Source: Patescibacteria group bacterium
Lineage (GTDB): Bacteria; Patescibacteriota; Patescibacteriia; UBA9934
Assembly: GCA_018062825.1 (NCBI GenBank)
Contig: JAGORL010000003.1
Coordinates: 138,333-197,601, forward strand
Reading direction: 5' to 3'
DNA length: 59,269 nucleotides
Shown here piece by piece: positions 14,196 through 34,249 of the stretch. Every line of letters starts with the position of its first letter. Within the stretch, counting starts at the first letter, position 1. Under the pieces are notes generated by a model. It was not told the origin of the DNA. It saw nothing but the letters and a program-made list of their open reading frames with translations, and did not search any database. A program made the translations under genes and the position numbers.

Positions 14196-14250
14196 AGGCC
14201 CACTTCGTCCGGCAGAGCCGGACTACGTTGGGGCTGTAAGTAGGGAGTAG
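14196..14250 (+). repeat. Dispersed intergenic repeat, copy A (GGCCCACTTCGTCCGG-loop-CCGGACTACGTTGGGGCT..TAGGGAGTAG)
   Basis: Near-identical to 15876-15929, with a degenerate copy at 33102-33153. Contains a 6 bp GTCCGG/CCGGAC hairpin. Confidence 0.8.
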
Positions 14251-14288
14251 AAAAAAAGAGCACGCGATGATGAGTCGGTGCTCTTTTT
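14251..14288. terminator. Bidirectional intrinsic terminator between convergent ileS and the P-loop kinase gene
   Basis: AAAAAAA-GAGCAC...GTGCTC-TTTTT. The sequence module is shared with 276-313. Confidence 0.75.
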
Positions 14289-14724
14289 AGTTATTCTCTA
14301 CAACTTCACAGAACCATTCTTTTGGTAATCGTTCACGCTTGATGAGGGTGTAGATTTTCCAGATATCTTCCCACGGCACATGATGAATATTGCGACGAAG
14401 GGCTACTTTTGGTTCGCAAACCATGGTCACGATGGAGATTTCGTAGCGTCTTGCTAGCCCAACGAGGTAGTACGGTGCGATATCTTCAGCAAGCGGATTA
14501 ATGTTATCAACGACGATGTGTTTGTGGCCGTTTCCTGTGAGTTCAAGGAAGTTTTTAAAACAGGTGCGTTGTGCCTGCGGGAGCTTGGCGGGATCATAAT
14601 CAAAGCCGCCGTGGGGTTTTTCAAAATAATGATCAGCAGAAACAATCACTGCTTCCTCCAGTGTTTTAGCGAACGTCGATTTTCCGGATCCTTGGATGCC
14701 GCGAAGAATCGTAAGTTGGCGCAT
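14287..14724 (-). CDS. P-loop NTPase, polynucleotide-kinase/AAA_33-like
   Basis: From the ATG at 14724: MRQLTILRGIQGSGKSTFAK (Walker A). About 145 aa. TATACT -10 lies 8 nt upstream of the ATG. Confidence 0.65.
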   Translation of the reverse strand: MRQLTILRGIQGSGKSTFAKTLEEAVIVSADHYFEKPHGGFDYDPAKLPQAQRTCFKNFLELTGNGHKHIVVDNINPLAEDIAPYYLVGLARRYEISIVTMVCEPKVALRRNIHHVPWEDIWKIYTLIKRERLPKEWFCEVVENN

Positions 14725-14977
14725 ATGCGTGAAGTATACAGGGAGTGGGCGGTAGTACGTAGGGAGTAGGTGATGTGCATGAAAATAAATCGCCCTCCCG
14801 AGAGTGGGAGGACGACGGGCCGCGGCAGGCACGCTTGTTCTTGACCTTGGTGCGGTCTTGGAAGCGGCCGGTGTGGCGATTCACGATGTTGTCGCGCGTG
14901 CTCTGCTTGGGAGCACGAACGACAATCTTGTTCGGGTCGCGCTTTGGGGGCGCGACGGGTTGAGATTTCTGTTTCAA
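14666..14977 (-). CDS. Small Lys/Arg-rich ORF (TTG start, strong SD) with an intrinsic terminator inside the frame
   Basis: AGGAGG (14989-14984), 6 nt, TTG 14977. Translation MKQKSQPVAPPKRDPNKIVVRAPKQSTRDNIVNRHTGRFQDRTKVKNKRA... The first in-frame stop is at 14666, inside the next gene, and the G+C-rich character ends near 14800. Confidence 0.4.
   Translation of the reverse strand: MKQKSQPVAPPKRDPNKIVVRAPKQSTRDNIVNRHTGRFQDRTKVKNKRACRGPSSSHSREGDLFSCTSPTPYVLPPTPCILHAYAPTYDSSRHPRIRKIDVR
14781..14811 (-). terminator. Intrinsic terminator located within the small basic ORF
   Basis: The minus strand reads CCTCCC-ACTCTC-GGGAGG then GCGATTTATTTTC. Confidence 0.6.
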
Positions 14978-15069
14978 GAGACGCCTCCTGGAAAGATTCT
15001 ATCAGAGATTTGATAGTGTCTTTATGGGAGGCCTGACCGAGTGCTTGCGCAATCGGTCAGGCGAGGCGG

Positions 15070-15657
15070 CTAGCTCAGCTGGAGCTTCACCGCGAGCGAG
15101 TTGATCAGGCGGACCTTGTCGTCGTCGATCACCTCGCCGGCGAGCATCTTCTCGATGTCGGGGGAGAGCTCGGCGGTCTGGCGCGGCGTGATCGGACCGG
15201 GGTACCAGGTCCAGAGCATGCCGTCCTCTTTGCCGACGATCACCCAGATGTCGCTCGTCTTCTCGAGCTCGCCCTGCCACGGCATCACGAGCTCGGGCCC
15301 GTGCGCACCGTCCACGAGACGCACGAGCTTGCGCTCGTTGTCCGTGAGATCGCCGTACAGCTTGACCCCGGTGCGGCCGATGAGGCCGGTGGGGAGCTTG
15401 ACGTGGAAGTAGCGGGCCTTGAAGAAGAAGGCGGTGGGTGGGAGATCGGTCTCGAACTTCTCTTCGAACTCCAGCGTCTCCGTGAGGAGCGCGACGGTGT
15501 CGTCGAGGGTCGAGATGTTCTCCACGTAGCTGCCGCGGTTTCCCGTGACGTCGTTGACGCGCACGAGGCCGTCCAGGTGCTTGGCCTCGGTCTTGCCGTC
15601 GGCGACGCTCTGCTTGAGGCTCTCGATCGCGGCGGACACGGTGGCGGTGGCGGTCAT
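15070..15657 (-). CDS. Hypothetical protein (195 aa), G+C-rich orphan
   Basis: Clean GC3-biased frame (MTATATVSAAIESLKQSVADGK...). The other five frames give Arg/Gly/Pro-rich shadow ORFs. No family recognised. Confidence 0.65.
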   Translation of the reverse strand: MTATATVSAAIESLKQSVADGKTEAKHLDGLVRVNDVTGNRGSYVENISTLDDTVALLTETLEFEEKFETDLPPTAFFFKARYFHVKLPTGLIGRTGVKLYGDLTDNERKLVRLVDGAHGPELVMPWQGELEKTSDIWVIVGKEDGMLWTWYPGPITPRQTAELSPDIEKMLAGEVIDDDKVRLINSLAVKLQLS

Positions 15658-15790
15658 GTGATGAACTCTGCGGTGAATGTCGCACGCTGGCGACCGGTTA
15701 AGGAACGAGTGATTCGCACCTCGCAGATGAGAAGTGATTCTCAGCTATGAGGTGCCCTGCATGACTGTTCATGCAACAACTTAACGATCT

Positions 15791-15819
15791 AGTATAGCAG
15801 AAATTTTGGTTTTTGTCAA
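15791..15819 (-). promoter_or_regulatory. Near-consensus promoter TTGACA-17-(TGC)TATACT
   Basis: The minus strand reads TTGACA (15819-15814), a 17 nt spacer ending in TGC, then TATACT (15796-15791). It drives a roughly 130 nt hairpin-containing leader to the ATG at 15657. Confidence 0.7.
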
Positions 15820-15875
15820 TGATTTTTGATGATTATTTGGCTAATATTAGTGTATAAAAATGGGGGTGGGGTATA

Positions 15876-15929
15876 GGTCCACTTCGTCCGGTAGGTCCGG
15901 ACTACGTTGGGGCTATAGGTAGGGAGTAG
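15876..15929 (+). repeat. Dispersed intergenic repeat, copy B
   Basis: GGTCCACTTCGTCCGGTAGGTCCGGACTACGTTGGGGCTATAGGTAGGGAGTAG; compare copy A. Confidence 0.8.
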
Positions 15930-15930
15930 G

Positions 15931-16626
15931 GGGTGGTCCCTCGATGCTGGTGAATGATCATCGGCATTGAGGGACCCTCGAGCGCGAACACTCGAGGTGA
16001 GAAGGTTGACATACACCCCACGCGGCCGTGGGGACGGTATGTCAGCGTCCGGAAACCTCCGGTAGTTGCTCTGCATGAGCGCGTCGCTGTGTGACCGTAG
16101 TCTTGCCCGTTTTTCGCCTTGATGCGCCGATTGGTCGCGCACGGCACCCCACTTGTGTGGGTAAGGGACTAGCTTAGATTGCTGTTGGGCTAAGCACCCG
16201 CAAGGACTCGGAGTTTAAGGGGGCTACCTTCCAATGTACTCACCCCACTCCACGCCGTCGCGTGGGTTCTCCTTCCTGTCTTGCTCGGGGTATGCCTCCC
16301 CTTTACCCTTTGTCTTTCGACATTGAGATAGACCTGAGCGTGGCCGAACTCTGAGAATCGCCTATGGTTACCCATACTCGACTCAGTGGAGTGCTCAACG
16401 TGCGGCGTTGAGCGAGAGGTGTGCAAACGACTCTGAATCTTCAATAAGCACGGTATTGAAGATTCAGAGCGTCCCTCAATGCATTCTCCGGAAGCATTGA
16501 GCGTGCGTGAACGCCTTGCCTTACCGTCCTCCTGTTGCGGTCCTTATGATGCCCGGTGGGCTTCATGAAAGATGATCGCAAGCCGGATAGGTAACGCGTT
16601 GTCATGCGGCACTGACGCCAACTTGA
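15931..16626 (-). ncRNA. Candidate large structured RNA (unclassified), about 700 nt
   Basis: No credible ORF. There is a dense series of stable hairpins: 15935-15976 (13 bp), 15977-15996, 16007-16044, 16394-16412, 16431-16469 (16 bp perfect) and 16475-16501. A good minus-strand promoter sits at 16633-16661. The strand call rests on that promoter alone. Confidence 0.45.
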
Positions 16627-16632
16627 CGGAGT

Positions 16633-16661
16633 ATCGTAGCACGGCCAGTTGCAATAATCAA
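16633..16661 (-). promoter_or_regulatory. Promoter TTGATT-17-(TGC)TACGAT reading into the ORF-less segment
   Basis: The minus strand reads TTGATT (16661-16656), a 17 nt spacer ending in TGC, then TACGAT (16638-16633). Confidence 0.55.
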
Positions 16662-31810: not shown

Positions 31811-31841
31811 AAATGAAAAACCCCGTAGAAACGGGGTTTTT
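31811..31841 (-). terminator. Intrinsic terminator of rnpB
   Basis: The minus strand reads AAAAACCCCGT-TTCT-ACGGGGTTTTTC. Confidence 0.8.
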
Positions 31842-31843
31842 CA

Positions 31844-32361
31844 GCAGGCGGTGCCGATAAGCCGAATTTTGTCTCACTTCTTATTGCGACGCAATGAGAA
31901 GTCAGGACGACCATCTCTCTTGTTCTTGTATTGCTACAAGACTTTAGCGAGCGACCGAATCTTGCTCTTGCACCAAAACGGGTTTGCCGCCACTGCATGT
32001 CACCATGCAGGGAGTGTGGTTGCACGCTAGTTACCTAGCGCACCTTCCGCACACGTTTCACTTTTCTTCACCTTGCTTACGCGAGGGTGAATAGTCTGTC
32101 TCTGTTGCGTACTACGTTACCGTTTCCAGTAGGCAGTACCCCGAAAATTCTTTCGTTTTCTCGAGACTTTCCCTAGGTTTGCCTCGAAAGTGAGGGATAG
32201 CTGCGTGCAGCCAATCCAATCCCTCACCACCGAAGGTATGCCTGGTCGCCGTTAGCGACGTTTTTTCTCATTGTGCCGTTGCCGACACACGGGTGTTCGG
32301 ACTTTCCTCACCTTTTCACCCTTTTTCAAGGATGGAGGGCGCGGTCGTCTGGCACGCCTGC
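31844..32361 (-). ncRNA. rnpB: RNase P RNA (bacterial type), unusually long at about 518 nt
   Basis: The minus strand contains GAGGAAAGTCCGAACAC (P4 5' strand) and GACAAAATTCGGCTTATCGG (P4 3' strand, ACAGAA..CGGCTTA-like). P1 pairs GCAGGCGTGCC with GGCACCGCCTGC. The -10 TGCTAATAT sits exactly 7 nt upstream of the 5' G. Confidence 0.85.
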
Positions 32362-32368
32362 GGGTTTT

Positions 32369-32400
32369 ATATTAGCAGAAAAAGAGGGGAAAGTAAAGAC
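32369..32400 (-). promoter_or_regulatory. rnpB promoter (TTTACT-17-(TGC)TAATAT)
   Basis: TAATAT at 32374-32369 (minus), TGC at 32377-32375, and a -35-like TTTACT 17 nt upstream. Confidence 0.65.
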
Positions 32401-32532
32401 AAACGCCCTAGTCCGAAGACGAGGGCGTCGAGTGTCACCCAGCAGTCGCACGAGGGCGTTGCTGGCACGTATATTTTGGCCGGGCGGCCAATGTGGAGGT
32501 AGTGATGTAGGAACAGTCGACCGGGCGGTCGA

Positions 32533-33012
32533 CTAGCTGATGGCGGCGCCGATGAAGCGCGCGAGCGCCTCGGTGCTGATCTGGTTCGTGATCTGGTCCT
32601 GGAGCTCGATGAACGCGTTGTTCACCGAGTCGCGCTTCGCTTCGCTCGACACACAGTAGAACATCACGCTGCGAGCGCGACGCACGAGCTGGCTCGCTTC
32701 GCTTGCGGAGAGCGTGTCGTGATTCGGGCACTCCTCGGGGTAGCAGAGGCGCGTGGCCTCGACGAGCATCTTGCCCTTCGGCAGGGCGTCGATGCCGTTG
32801 CGCTTCAGCGAGTCCGTGAGAACCTGGAACCGATCACGGTCCGCCTGACTGGTCAGGTTGTTGGCCGGGCTGTTCTTCTTGAACGCTTCCTGGGACTTGC
32901 GCGCGCGCTCCTGCTCTGCGAAGAGCATGGGCGGTTGCGACTTGCTCGTGCGGGCCGGGCGGCGTTCACGAGGCACGGGGGTGGCGGTGGGGGTGACAGA
33001 ACGGAGTTCCAA
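32533..33012 (-). CDS. Hypothetical protein (159 aa), G+C-rich orphan with basic disordered N-terminus
   Basis: TTG start with GAGGT 5 nt upstream and a GC3-biased frame. Promoter TTGCTA-16-(TGC)TATACT at 33061-33088. Confidence 0.55.
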   Translation of the reverse strand: MELRSVTPTATPVPRERRPARTSKSQPPMLFAEQERARKSQEAFKKNSPANNLTSQADRDRFQVLTDSLKRNGIDALPKGKMLVEATRLCYPEECPNHDTLSASEASQLVRRARSVMFYCVSSEAKRDSVNNAFIELQDQITNQISTEALARFIGAAIS

Positions 33013-33060
33013 GGTTGACCTCTGATTGGACGTGACGCACCCGGGAGTGGATGCGTACGA

Positions 33061-33088
33061 AGTATAGCAGAATGGCTTAAATTAGCAA
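33061..33088 (-). promoter_or_regulatory. Promoter TTGCTA-16-(TGC)TATACT
   Basis: The minus strand has TTGCTA (33088-33083) and TATACT (33066-33061). Confidence 0.6.
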
Positions 33089-33101
33089 GAAAAGGGGTTA
33101 G

Positions 33102-33153
33102 GGCCCACTTCATCCTAGCGGACTACGTTAGGACTGGAAAGTAGGAAGTAGGG
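33102..33153 (+). repeat. Dispersed intergenic repeat, degenerate copy C
   Basis: GGCCCACTTCATCCTAGCGGACTACGTTAGGACTGGAAAGTAGGAAGTAGGG aligns with copies A and B. Confidence 0.65.
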
Positions 33154-33196
33154 TGAAAAGAAGACCGCCCCAGTTCCGTGAGAGGAATGGGGCGGT
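33153..33196 (-). terminator. Intrinsic terminator after 33225..33884
   Basis: The minus strand reads ACCGCCCCA-loop-TGGGGCGGT then CTTCTTTTC. Confidence 0.65.
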
Positions 33197-33224
33197 GCGG
33201 GTGGTGCTGTCTTGAGGACGCTGT

Positions 33225-33884
33225 CTACTTGGCGGAGGCGACCATCTCCGCCGGTTCCGGCGAGAGGAAGTCCTGCCGGCGGGCGGCGAGCTCCTTCTCG
33301 CGGCTCGAGCGGGCGTTCACGCCGCAGAAGCAGTCGGCGAAGAGGAGGATGTCGCCGTCCTGGAGGTGGCGCTGCAGCATGACATCGTCGCTCGAGAGCC
33401 GGACGAGGTCACCGCGGATCAGGGTCTGGGTGATCTGCTCGACGACCGCGAGGGTCATGGCCTTGTTGATCGAGGTGGCGGTGCAGAACTTGGCCCACTG
33501 AGTGCGCCAAGCGTTGTGCGCCTTGAGCTTCTCGCCATCCATGCGGACGGCGCGCTCGGTGGCACCGATGATGTCGCGGATGCGCGAGTCCAGGAAGAGC
33601 TCGGGCGAGTTCTCGATCACGCACTTGATGGTGATCATGGCGCAGATGGCGGGGTGAGGCCGCATGACGTGCGCGACGATCGCGTTCTTCGCGGCGTCGA
33701 AGCCGCGGGCCACGCGCTTCTTGACGGTGGAGGTGCGGACCCGGGTGGTGACCTGGGTCGTCTCCGGTGCCGGGCGGCGCTCGGAGGGGGTGCGGCTCGG
33801 GCCGCGGTGGCCGTGCGGGAAGGAGCGGGCGTGGGCGGCGTGGTGCGATGCAGTCTGCAAGGGACTCTCCTTGTTGAGTTTCAC
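33225..33884 (-). CDS. Hypothetical protein (about 211-219 aa), G+C-rich orphan with basic His/Arg/Pro-rich N-terminus
   Basis: Very strong GC3 bias in this frame only. The likely true start is TTG 33860, preceded by AAGGAG. The -10 (TGC)TAATGT lies at 33913-33921. Confidence 0.6.
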   Translation of the reverse strand: MKLNKESPLQTASHHAAHARSFPHGHRGPSRTPSERRPAPETTQVTTRVRTSTVKKRVARGFDAAKNAIVAHVMRPHPAICAMITIKCVIENSPELFLDSRIRDIIGATERAVRMDGEKLKAHNAWRTQWAKFCTATSINKAMTLAVVEQITQTLIRGDLVRLSSDDVMLQRHLQDGDILLFADCFCGVNARSSREKELAARRQDFLSPEPAEMVASAK

Positions 33885-33928
33885 GCTTCACCAACCACGG
33901 TAAAGCTCGCGAACATTAGCAGAATATT

Positions 33929-33965
33929 AAAAAAAGAGCAACTCGTGCCGGCGTGGCACGAGTTG
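33929..33965 (-). terminator. Intrinsic terminator after 33971..34249
   Basis: The minus strand reads CAACTCGTGCC-loop-GGCACGAGTTG then CTCTTTTTTT. Confidence 0.75.
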
Positions 33966-33970
33966 GAGCC

Positions 33971-34249
33971 CTATTCGGGGGCGACGGGGGACGATTCAGC
34001 GATCGACCCGAGAGTGGCGCACAGTAGGTAAGCGCCTACGACGCTGAAGCCGAGGATGTTCTGGGTGTTCAGGCTGGCGAGGTCGGCTTGGTGGCAGGCC
34101 AGAAGGATGATGAGTCCGATCGGTGCACCACCAAGTGAACCGAACGTGAAAGCCTTCATGATGGCCTTGTGAGGGACGGGCTGGTCTGCGTGCATTGCTT
34201 CTCGTTGGCGCAAGCGCCGCAAGAATGGATCCATCATGGACGTGATCAC
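33971..34249 (-). CDS. Small membrane protein (92 aa), G+C-rich
   Basis: Two hydrophobic helices (FGSLGGAPIGLIILLAC, ILGFSVVGAYLLCATLG). GAGGTGA SD upstream. Confidence 0.5.
   Translation of the reverse strand: MITSMMDPFLRRLRQREAMHADQPVPHKAIMKAFTFGSLGGAPIGLIILLACHQADLASLNTQNILGFSVVGAYLLCATLGSIAESSPVAPE

Follow-up and report, generated by a model that had tools for sequence, protein, structure and literature searches.

We found, in the 0.92-Mb genome of a Patescibacteria group bacterium (lineage UBA9934), a small basic protein gene whose 3' end would be set by an intrinsic terminator within its own reading frame instead of by a stop codon. The gene lies on the minus strand of the DNA stretch analyzed here, hereafter the window (59,269 nucleotides; positions 138333-197601 of contig C4, GenBank JAGORL010000003.1), in an assembly of 5 contigs that is 98.9% complete; the sequencing runs containing the window DNA are labelled wastewater metagenome, and the 20 listed include no RNA run. 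As the initial annotation had described, a TTG at 14977 stands behind a perfect AGGAGG, and from it an open reading frame (ORF) of 103 codons extends over 14977..14666. The anatomy of the gene can be read directly, and its conservation as a protein is observed across its relatives. Comparison of their DNA with the window shows that the hairpin is conserved in frame and that the stop codon, as judged from these loci, is dispensable.

A conserved small gene with a hairpin in its reading frame

Searching 1.84 billion representative proteins with phmmer returned four relatives of 60-92 aa (45-91% identity, E 9e-33 to 5.5e-5). Genome searches at the family level found the gene in G469, G003 and G015 (4 of 68 genomes, including that of the window), the order-level search added G553 (5 of 162), and the class-level search added G907 (2 of 401). 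A phylum sample of 401 genomes gave three marginal matches (L020, L021 and L022; E 0.001-0.008), of which L020 was rejected as a family member, being antisense within a 527-aa membrane-protein ORF, and L021 and L022 were left out of the family count. Word-indexed protein searches yielded no further relatives; Pfam, NCBIfam and PHROGs gave no useful family match for the small protein, and JGI metagenomes contained no match for its family. Neither this family nor that of the 195-aa protein encoded upstream had a match in IMG/VR, and tblastn against phage records found nothing for either protein.

Across an alignment of eight members, V8, N33, H35, D41, K44, A50, C51 and R52 are invariant and R34 and F39 occur in seven, giving a core of N-R-H-x-P/G-x-F-x-D-R-x-K-(5)-A-C-R. 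Peptide identity across the family is 33-54%, and the ratio of nonsynonymous to synonymous substitution rates (dN/dS) is 0.32-0.46 in five of six pairs, the sixth being saturated, with changes mostly at third positions. A Shine-Dalgarno (SD) sequence (GGAGG, AGGAGG or GAGG) precedes the start by 5-7 nt in all 4 loci inspected, and the relatives start with ATG at the aligned position. AlphaFold2 (AF2) modeled the small protein as mostly unstructured with one helix at residues 42-51 (predicted local distance difference test, pLDDT, 67; predicted TM-score, pTM, 0.21). We regard the small ORF as very probably a real, if very rare, gene, whose product is a basic, largely unstructured protein of ~63-66 residues.

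The in-frame terminator pointed out in the initial annotation is present with no earlier stop, although its stem is longer than had been noted: 11 bp, 7 of them G-C, closing a 6-nt loop (14816-14789). The window hairpin has a minimum free energy of -24.3 kcal/mol and a z score of -3.5 (-2.9 in a second run), and only 1 of 200 shuffled sequences folds as well. Because a loose consensus scan picked up 3 terminator-like sites over 3 kb, where 3.3 would be expected, the count of such sites is uninformative and the case rests on the strength of the hairpin and on the relatives. Among these, the proposed non-stop layout recurs: at 5 of the 6 loci with DNA, the window included, an in-frame hairpin directly follows the conserved KRACR motif, with no upstream stop. 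The stems at these loci have unrelated sequences (Table 1), which argues for selection on pairing. Homologs with a conventional stop upstream of the hairpin, which the initial annotation had named as a refuting case, were looked for in the family loci and none was seen.

Across the five hairpin loci the stop codon is missing in three, lies inside the U tract in one, and stands 16 nt past the stem in one (L081). No stop occurs in the window for 38 codons past the T tract; the first in-frame stop, a TAA at 14668-14666, falls inside the next gene and in lower-GC DNA, as had been stated, 56 nt into that kinase gene and out of its frame. At L036 the 110 codons read contain no stop, and the stop-to-stop frame puts the first one ~110 codons past the T tract. 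The first stop at L037 comes ~185 codons on, after reading in frame through the next gene, and that of L038 lies 2 nt past the stem, within the U tract. Of the relatives known as proteins, P0002 (91% identical to the window copy) and P0007 both finish exactly with the T-tract codons (..DLF and ..FDF), with the stop of P0002 replacing the TCA at codon 66 of the window, and P0008 extends 27 codons beyond them. At L037 (G003:C14), the stop-less small gene continues in frame through a 20-codon spacer and on into its neighbor, a gene with a GAGG and an ATG of its own; the whole forms a single open frame of 321 codons.

As a control, we surveyed the long ORFs of the window genome (888), near whose 3' ends (ORFs of at least 150 aa) 197 terminator-like sites occur: 173 after the stop, 9 spanning it, and 15 with the stem ending before it. 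Most of these 15 are weak internal hairpins, and 3 have the stop 6-8 nt past the stem, at or in the T tract. Intrinsic terminators are evidently in ordinary use in this genome, to judge from the 173 sites placed after stops. In a high-GC cassette on contig C3, a TAG lies 27 nt upstream of the terminator stem.

The 103-aa ORF was rejected as the product. Past the T tract, the window frame runs through an incomplete intergenic repeat (CCTACTCCCTAC, 14770-14759), a TATACT at 14738-14733, and the first 56 nt of the kinase gene, which it reads out of frame; because the 38-codon tail thus consists of repeat, kinase promoter and out-of-frame kinase sequence, we do not take it for protein. Contigs X5 and X6, from runs of two other studies, retain the small gene along with the kinase gene, with 54-55 nt (14727/14728-14781) swapped for 12-13 other letters and no stop in the frame of the small gene; their divergence from the window starts at 14781, the first base past the T tract. 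This comparison of X5-X7 covers 40 of 159 differing places. The X6 contig has two unexplained 1-nt gaps inside the ORF (14857 and 14866; depth ~4) and 5 further gaps.

The repeat itself is found throughout the genome (contigs C1-C5), with 24 matches to CCCCAACGTAGTCCGG at up to 3 mismatches, ~22 of which share the full context, including copies in the window at ~15912 and ~14233 (minus strand). Its layout is a terminator T tract, CTACTCCCTAC..CAG, then CCCCAACGTAGTCCGG, a 5-nt loop, CCGGACGAAGTGGGCC, and then CTACTCCCTA. The core is palindromic, resembling repetitive extragenic palindromes or miniature inverted-repeat transposable elements (REP/MITE-like), and copies frequently lie just after terminators and just before promoters.

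Might the window copy be a decaying remnant, a pseudogene in the making whose layout says nothing about function here? It starts with TTG where relatives with DNA have ATG, P0002 has a stop where the window has TCA, the GC-rich stretch of ~800 nt upstream (~15860-16650) has no ORF longer than 108 aa and no Rfam match, and the small ORF finds no self-match in the protein collection and was probably never called as a gene. We nevertheless think this improbable: the 6 differences from P0002 all fall in the first 25 residues, four of them conservative (I>M, V>I, R>K, Q>R), whereas the last 40 residues are identical; the frame contains neither a frameshift nor an internal stop; the perfect SD is kept; and the stop-less state is also present in the X5 and X6 contigs of other studies.

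In a pyrBI leader, an ORF spans an attenuator upstream of a co-directional gene. By analogy, the small ORF could be the leader of a translation-coupled attenuator, in which a ribosome close behind RNA polymerase would melt the terminator and let transcription proceed into the kinase gene. Its frame does span the terminator and overlap the start of a co-directional gene 58 nt past the T tract, and the adjacency of the small gene and the kinase gene is kept in the X5, X6 and X7 contigs (three other studies). This explanation is made very improbable by the conservation of the peptide (33-54% identity, invariant residues, dN/dS < 0.5), which is not expected of a pure leader, by a downstream neighbor that varies from a convergent gene at L036 to an in-frame gene at L037 and a different gene at L038, and by a promoter element that the kinase gene appears to have of its own. 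In three variants, namely, the window (14733-14740), X5 and X6, a -10-like hexamer (TATACT or TATAAT) sits 7-8 nt before the kinase ATG without an SD, which suggests that the kinase mRNA may be leaderless.

Ribosome rescue in the genome and a proposed role

Trans-translation is the only rescue system that we recognize in the window genome. The initial annotation had raised the question of ssrA and smpB, and both are present: the transfer-messenger RNA (tmRNA) scores 93.6 bits and carries a 25-residue tag, ANVFSRAKAALASAFATPSFAFVAA, and SmpB accompanies it. The genome also encodes release factor 1 (RF1) and release factor 2 (RF2; prfB, 370 aa, on contig C2, 475.8 bits), the latter with SPF, GGQ and the switch-loop Trp. 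The ArfA family PF03889 had no match in the genome under settings that detected the E. coli control; a search for a third RF-1-domain gene found none, hence no ArfB; and NFACT_N (RqcH) gave nothing above the cut-off. By its gene content, tmRNA-SmpB is the sole recognizable rescue system of this 98.9%-complete genome.

We infer that the terminator works, that tmRNA gates the expression of the small protein, and that the protein may act in rescue, by the following route. Transcripts ending in the U tract would be non-stop mRNAs, on which ribosomes would run to the 3' end and stall. tmRNA-SmpB would then tag the product for degradation, and untagged product would build up only if trans-translation were saturated or had been lost. 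Once present, the protein would place its conserved N-R-H-x-P/G-x-F-x-D-R segment at the decoding centre and its K/R-rich tail in the empty mRNA channel, serving as a backup rescue factor that depends on RF2 and belongs to a family of its own. Rescue would be the likeliest job for such a protein, because its expression logic is that of ArfA and BrfA. The steps of this scheme differ in strength. The window organism probably makes mostly non-stop transcripts from the gene, as its terminator and frame predict. That the protein is made from non-stop mRNA with tmRNA gating as a selected property seems to us close to an even call, tipping slightly toward doubt. An ArfA/BrfA-like rescue function, suggested by analogy, is a tentative assignment that we hold to be plausible but unlikely.

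The initial non-stop reading is supported in part, and the relatives strengthen it. Sequence comparison, however, ruled out membership in ArfA or BrfA, and that part of the reading fell away. PF03889 had no match at E <= 10 in any of the 8 members, nor in a doubtful ninth relative on L031; an NCBIfam search with the small protein gave nothing at E <= 10; the family profile, run against all PDB chain sequences at E <= 10, returned one unrelated match (E 3.5) and no ArfA, BrfA or other rescue-factor chain; BLASTP of the family against E. coli ArfA produced no alignment; and hhalign against the same protein gave a probability of 0.28%. The faint ArfA resemblance that had been proposed does recur in 6 of the 8 members: hhalign and six of the eight Smith-Waterman alignments place the family R-H-x-P/G-x-F-x-D-R on L20-H21-D22-P23-L24-F25-R26-Q27-R28 of ArfA, with H35..F39..R42 of the family on H21..F25..R28. 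The match is weak, since 72-169 of 2000 composition-preserving shuffles scored as well for these six members (p only 0.04-0.08). A predicted complex between the small protein (alignment of 8 rows) and RF2 (17 rows) scored 0.00 with no verdict and with its controls left unfolded, and speaks neither for nor against binding. No publication joining Patescibacteria, ribosome rescue and ArfA was among the best 8 of 192 literature matches.

High-GC islands and the case for accessory cargo

The small gene is patchily distributed. Four low-GC genomes carry it on the 3' edge of islands made up of ORFan genes with high GC (2-4 kb in G469, G003 and G015; ~2 kb in the window), and in G553, whose whole genome is high-GC, it has an ordinary stop. 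The overall GC content of the window genome is ~48%, compared with 0.60-0.67 at 14750-15724 and 0.43-0.49 at 14225-14749. Of ten island ORFs tested, one had a Pfam family (STIV B116-like) and two had PHROG matches; the former lies at 4140-4448 of L043, as a STIV B116-like/phrog_5063 gene inside the same high-GC island of G015 as the small gene, a hint that the islands may be of viral origin.

Several considerations weigh against a rescue factor made from non-stop mRNA. The function of the terminator and the 3' ends of the transcripts are both deduced from sequence alone, and a ribosome close behind RNA polymerase could suppress the hairpin and cause read-through. In G553 (L078), an ordinary TGA stands 11 codons after RCR, with no notable hairpin at that place (z -0.9); P0006, known as a protein only, ends early at 60 aa and may be of the G553 type. 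The stop of L038 is so near the stem that normally terminated transcripts would include it, and L037 keeps a hairpin without a U tract, so that processing rather than termination may act there. The stops directly after the T tract in P0002 and P0007 also fit a compact stop-in-terminator layout that later decayed in some lineages, and three ordinary genes of the window genome likewise have their stop at or in the T tract. The family has no significant sequence similarity to ArfA or BrfA; two members align to ArfA elsewhere or poorly (245 and 1338 of 2000 shuffles); and the K-H motif, which is common to ArfA and BrfA and contacts U534 of 16S rRNA (PMC6881298, PMC8012679), is not conserved in the family alignment. 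The rarity and island setting of the gene look more like mobile or viral cargo than housekeeping, and the gene of an ordinary small protein may have entered low-GC genomes together with its terminator and lost its stop by decay afterwards. Finally, the doubtful distant relative on L031, a phage-like marine contig, has a normal stop, and the TTG start of the window copy next to ~800 nt without a long ORF may mean decay.

Many of these observations suit a rival account, in which the gene encodes a small basic protein of an ordinary, accessory kind (it might, for instance, bind nucleic acid and stem from a phage or mobile element) and the gene end is simply packed into the terminator. The ancestral stop would then have stood within or just past the T tract or, as at G553, ahead of any terminator; its loss in some lineages would be neutral decay at the edge of a horizontally acquired island, and tmRNA tagging, if it takes place, would have no regulatory meaning. 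The position at the edge of ORFan islands, the STIV B116-like gene, the ordinary stop of G553, the stops at the T tracts of P0002, P0007, L038 and the three ordinary genes, and the TTG start and partly ORF-less island of the window all speak for it. So do the nearest ESM Atlas clusters, made up of hypothetical viral proteins of small size (score 0.90; the lead is weak), and the L031 relative. The latter is a 59-aa ORF that ends in ...DRKKKKNKHACRGKW, has a normal stop but lacks a terminator, and lies 2.3 kb away from a 195-aa gene relative; its E of 1.6e-4 is valid only within a small search space. A DUF7230 label, carried by 13-17% of the ESM Atlas cluster members, was set aside, as Pfam did not confirm it and the term was not found in the literature. 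Against neutral decay, stop-less copies occur in at least 5 separately sampled lineages (window, X5, X6, L036 and L037) and in P0008, with the protein conserved and the hairpin kept with differing stems, and stalling ribosomes on each terminated transcript should carry a cost, unless such stalling is what the gene is for. Intrinsic termination occurs 7-9 nt after the stem, and even where the stop lies directly past the T tract, termination would usually cut it off. We consider the accessory-protein account a serious but still somewhat doubtful possibility.

The features of the window locus, and the stems compared above, are collected in Table 1. The high-GC cassette that ends with the small gene is headed by a promoter-like site, and a second high-GC cassette, on contig C3, has a promoter region near-identical to it. 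The first gene of the window cassette encodes a 195-aa protein for which Pfam and NCBIfam searches returned no family and Foldseek against PDB and BFVD no match at E <= 0.001; its AF2 model (pLDDT 94, pTM 0.86) is mixed alpha/beta, and it may represent a new fold or family. Its relatives (13 loci) come mostly from marine, phage-like metagenome contigs, and one lies in a Candidatus Uhrbacteria metagenome-assembled genome (L018), at 66% GC between flanks of 42% GC and behind a similar promoter. Different genes lie upstream of the small gene at its other loci, and the 195-aa gene therefore does not qualify as its conserved partner.

Table 1. Features of the window locus (minus strand) and hairpin stems following the KRACR motif at the five hairpin loci
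Feature	Position	Strand	Details
Sigma-70-type promoter-like site	15791..15819	-	TTGACA, 17 nt, TATACT, TG before the -10; 11 of 12 matches; heads the high-GC cassette
195-aa ORF, first cassette gene	15070..15657	-	GC at third codon positions (GC3) 0.95; AF2 pLDDT 94
Hairpin, 9 bp (CCTGACCGA...TCGGTCAGG), no T tract	15032..15061	-	Between the 195-aa gene and the small gene; read from sequence
Shine-Dalgarno AGGAGG	14984..14989	-	6-nt spacer to the TTG start of the small gene
Small basic protein gene, codons 1-66	14780..14977	-	TTG start (14977-14975) through the end of the T tract
Terminator-like stem-loop, 11 bp, loop ACUCUC	14789..14816	-	Codons 54-63 of the small gene
U tract UUAUUUU	14782..14788	-	Last U is base 1 of codon 66
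Frame run-on, 38 codons, judged non-coding	14666..14779	-	Repeat copy, -10-like hexamer and out-of-frame kinase start
P-loop kinase/ATPase gene, ATG at 14724	14287..14724	-	AAA_33 E 7.8e-9; phrog_2071 E 1.5e-21; native-GC DNA
Window stem GUCGUCCUCCC / GGGAGGGCGAU			11 bp; z -3.5; U tract follows
L036 stem CUCCCCGC / GCGGGGAG			9 bp; z -1.3; U-rich tail follows
L037 stem UCCUCAUC / GAUGGGGA			8 bp; z -3.1; no U tract
L038 stem			12 bp, takes in the A-C-R codons; z -2.8; U-rich tail follows
L081 stem GGAGGUUC / GAACCUCC			8 bp; z -2.1; weak U-rich tail

Upstream of the cassette promoter, the ~800 nt at ~15860-16650 are GC-rich (52-61%) with a longest ORF of 108 aa, and an Rfam scan at E <= 1 gave only two chance-level matches there and no family match; this stretch could consist of decayed island genes or be an unrecognized RNA. 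More ORFan cassettes of 60-70% GC occur in the 48% GC genome (C3:128500-129800, C3:130243 onward, and window 32000-34000), each with its own terminator and a strong, native-looking promoter. A match to RNase P RNA (class A) at 31841-32360 of the window (minus strand) spans 520 nt against a model of 367 positions, hence has large insertions, and borders another high-GC stretch.

Comparison with known rescue factors

The RF-dependent rescue factors ArfA, ArfT and BrfA share no sequence similarity, and more such factors probably exist that are hard to find by homology, according to two papers (PMC6881298, PMC8012679). What can be searched for is a regulatory signature: a small basic ORF with a terminator or a cleavage hairpin ahead of its stop. 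The family described here shows this signature across diverged members, in a genome with no recognizable backup to trans-translation. If the rescue reading is true, it would add a new rescue family in reduced genomes, imply that signature-based search works, and show that such factors move on mobile islands; should the protein serve some other function, the gene would remain an instance of tmRNA-gated expression beyond ribosome rescue. In its fullest form, the proposal is that of a fourth independently evolved (or extremely diverged ArfA-like) RF2-dependent rescue family, the first in a very small (0.92 Mb) genome with tmRNA-SmpB as its only recognizable rescue system, made from an obligate non-stop mRNA and horizontally traded on small high-GC islands; taken as a whole, we judge this rather unlikely.

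As in a pyrBI-type leader, the window ORF crosses an intrinsic terminator just upstream of a co-directional gene; unlike such a leader, the family shows protein-level conservation of its peptide, and its downstream gene changes from locus to locus. ArfT of Francisella, an RF-dependent rescue factor, is comparable in being small, narrowly distributed and of independent origin, but is ~40 aa long and works with RF1 or RF2; the text consulted mentions no non-stop regulation of it (PMC6881298, PMC8012679).

ArfA (PF03889; beta- and gamma-proteobacteria) shares with the family its small size, a basic C-terminal region, and the dispensability of the parts past the hairpin. The N-terminal region of the family is, by contrast, ~14 residues longer before the motif, and the family has an invariant A-C-R, which ArfA lacks. 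The active form of ArfA has 55 residues, and free ArfA is mostly unstructured. From the Phe to the non-stop end there are ~26 residues in the family, compared with 30 in ArfA (in its 55-residue form) and 31 in BrfA. The non-stop mRNA of ArfA is described as arising at an in-ORF stem-loop through premature termination or RNase III cleavage (PMC8012679), and the DNA of the family shows an in-frame hairpin with no stop ahead of it at 5 of 6 loci. The purified construct in the BrfA paper is ArfA(2-60) (PMC6881298). Residues His21-Glu30 of ArfA occupy the A site, with Pro23 packed against A1492/A1493; Leu19, Leu24 and Phe25 bind Trp319 of RF2 (PMC5378476).

The closest parallel is with BrfA (YqkK) of Bacillus subtilis, whose 71-codon gene contains an in-ORF rho-independent terminator and whose product of ~62 aa is tagged by tmRNA and removed, a circuit demonstrated by experiment; Phe31 of BrfA stacks on Trp318 of RF2, and His34 and Arg36 on A1492 (PMC6881298). 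BrfA shows low compatibility across species. The window gene is similar in size, in the placement of its putative terminator (codons 54-66) and in basic character. An invariant His and a near-invariant Phe of the family stand 26-30 residues before the end, where BrfA has its Phe and His/Arg cluster ~30 before, and the positively charged C-terminal part of BrfA has a counterpart in the K/R-rich tail of the family. As in BrfA, a terminator-like structure precedes the stop within the coding region in the window and also at L036, whereas at L038 the stop is inside the U tract and at L081 the tail is weak. The BrfA stop lies 9 codons past the truncation, compared with 38 codons in the window and an absent or variable stop in the relatives; and BrfA is a chromosomal Bacillus gene, whereas the small gene described here occurs in patchy high-GC islands.

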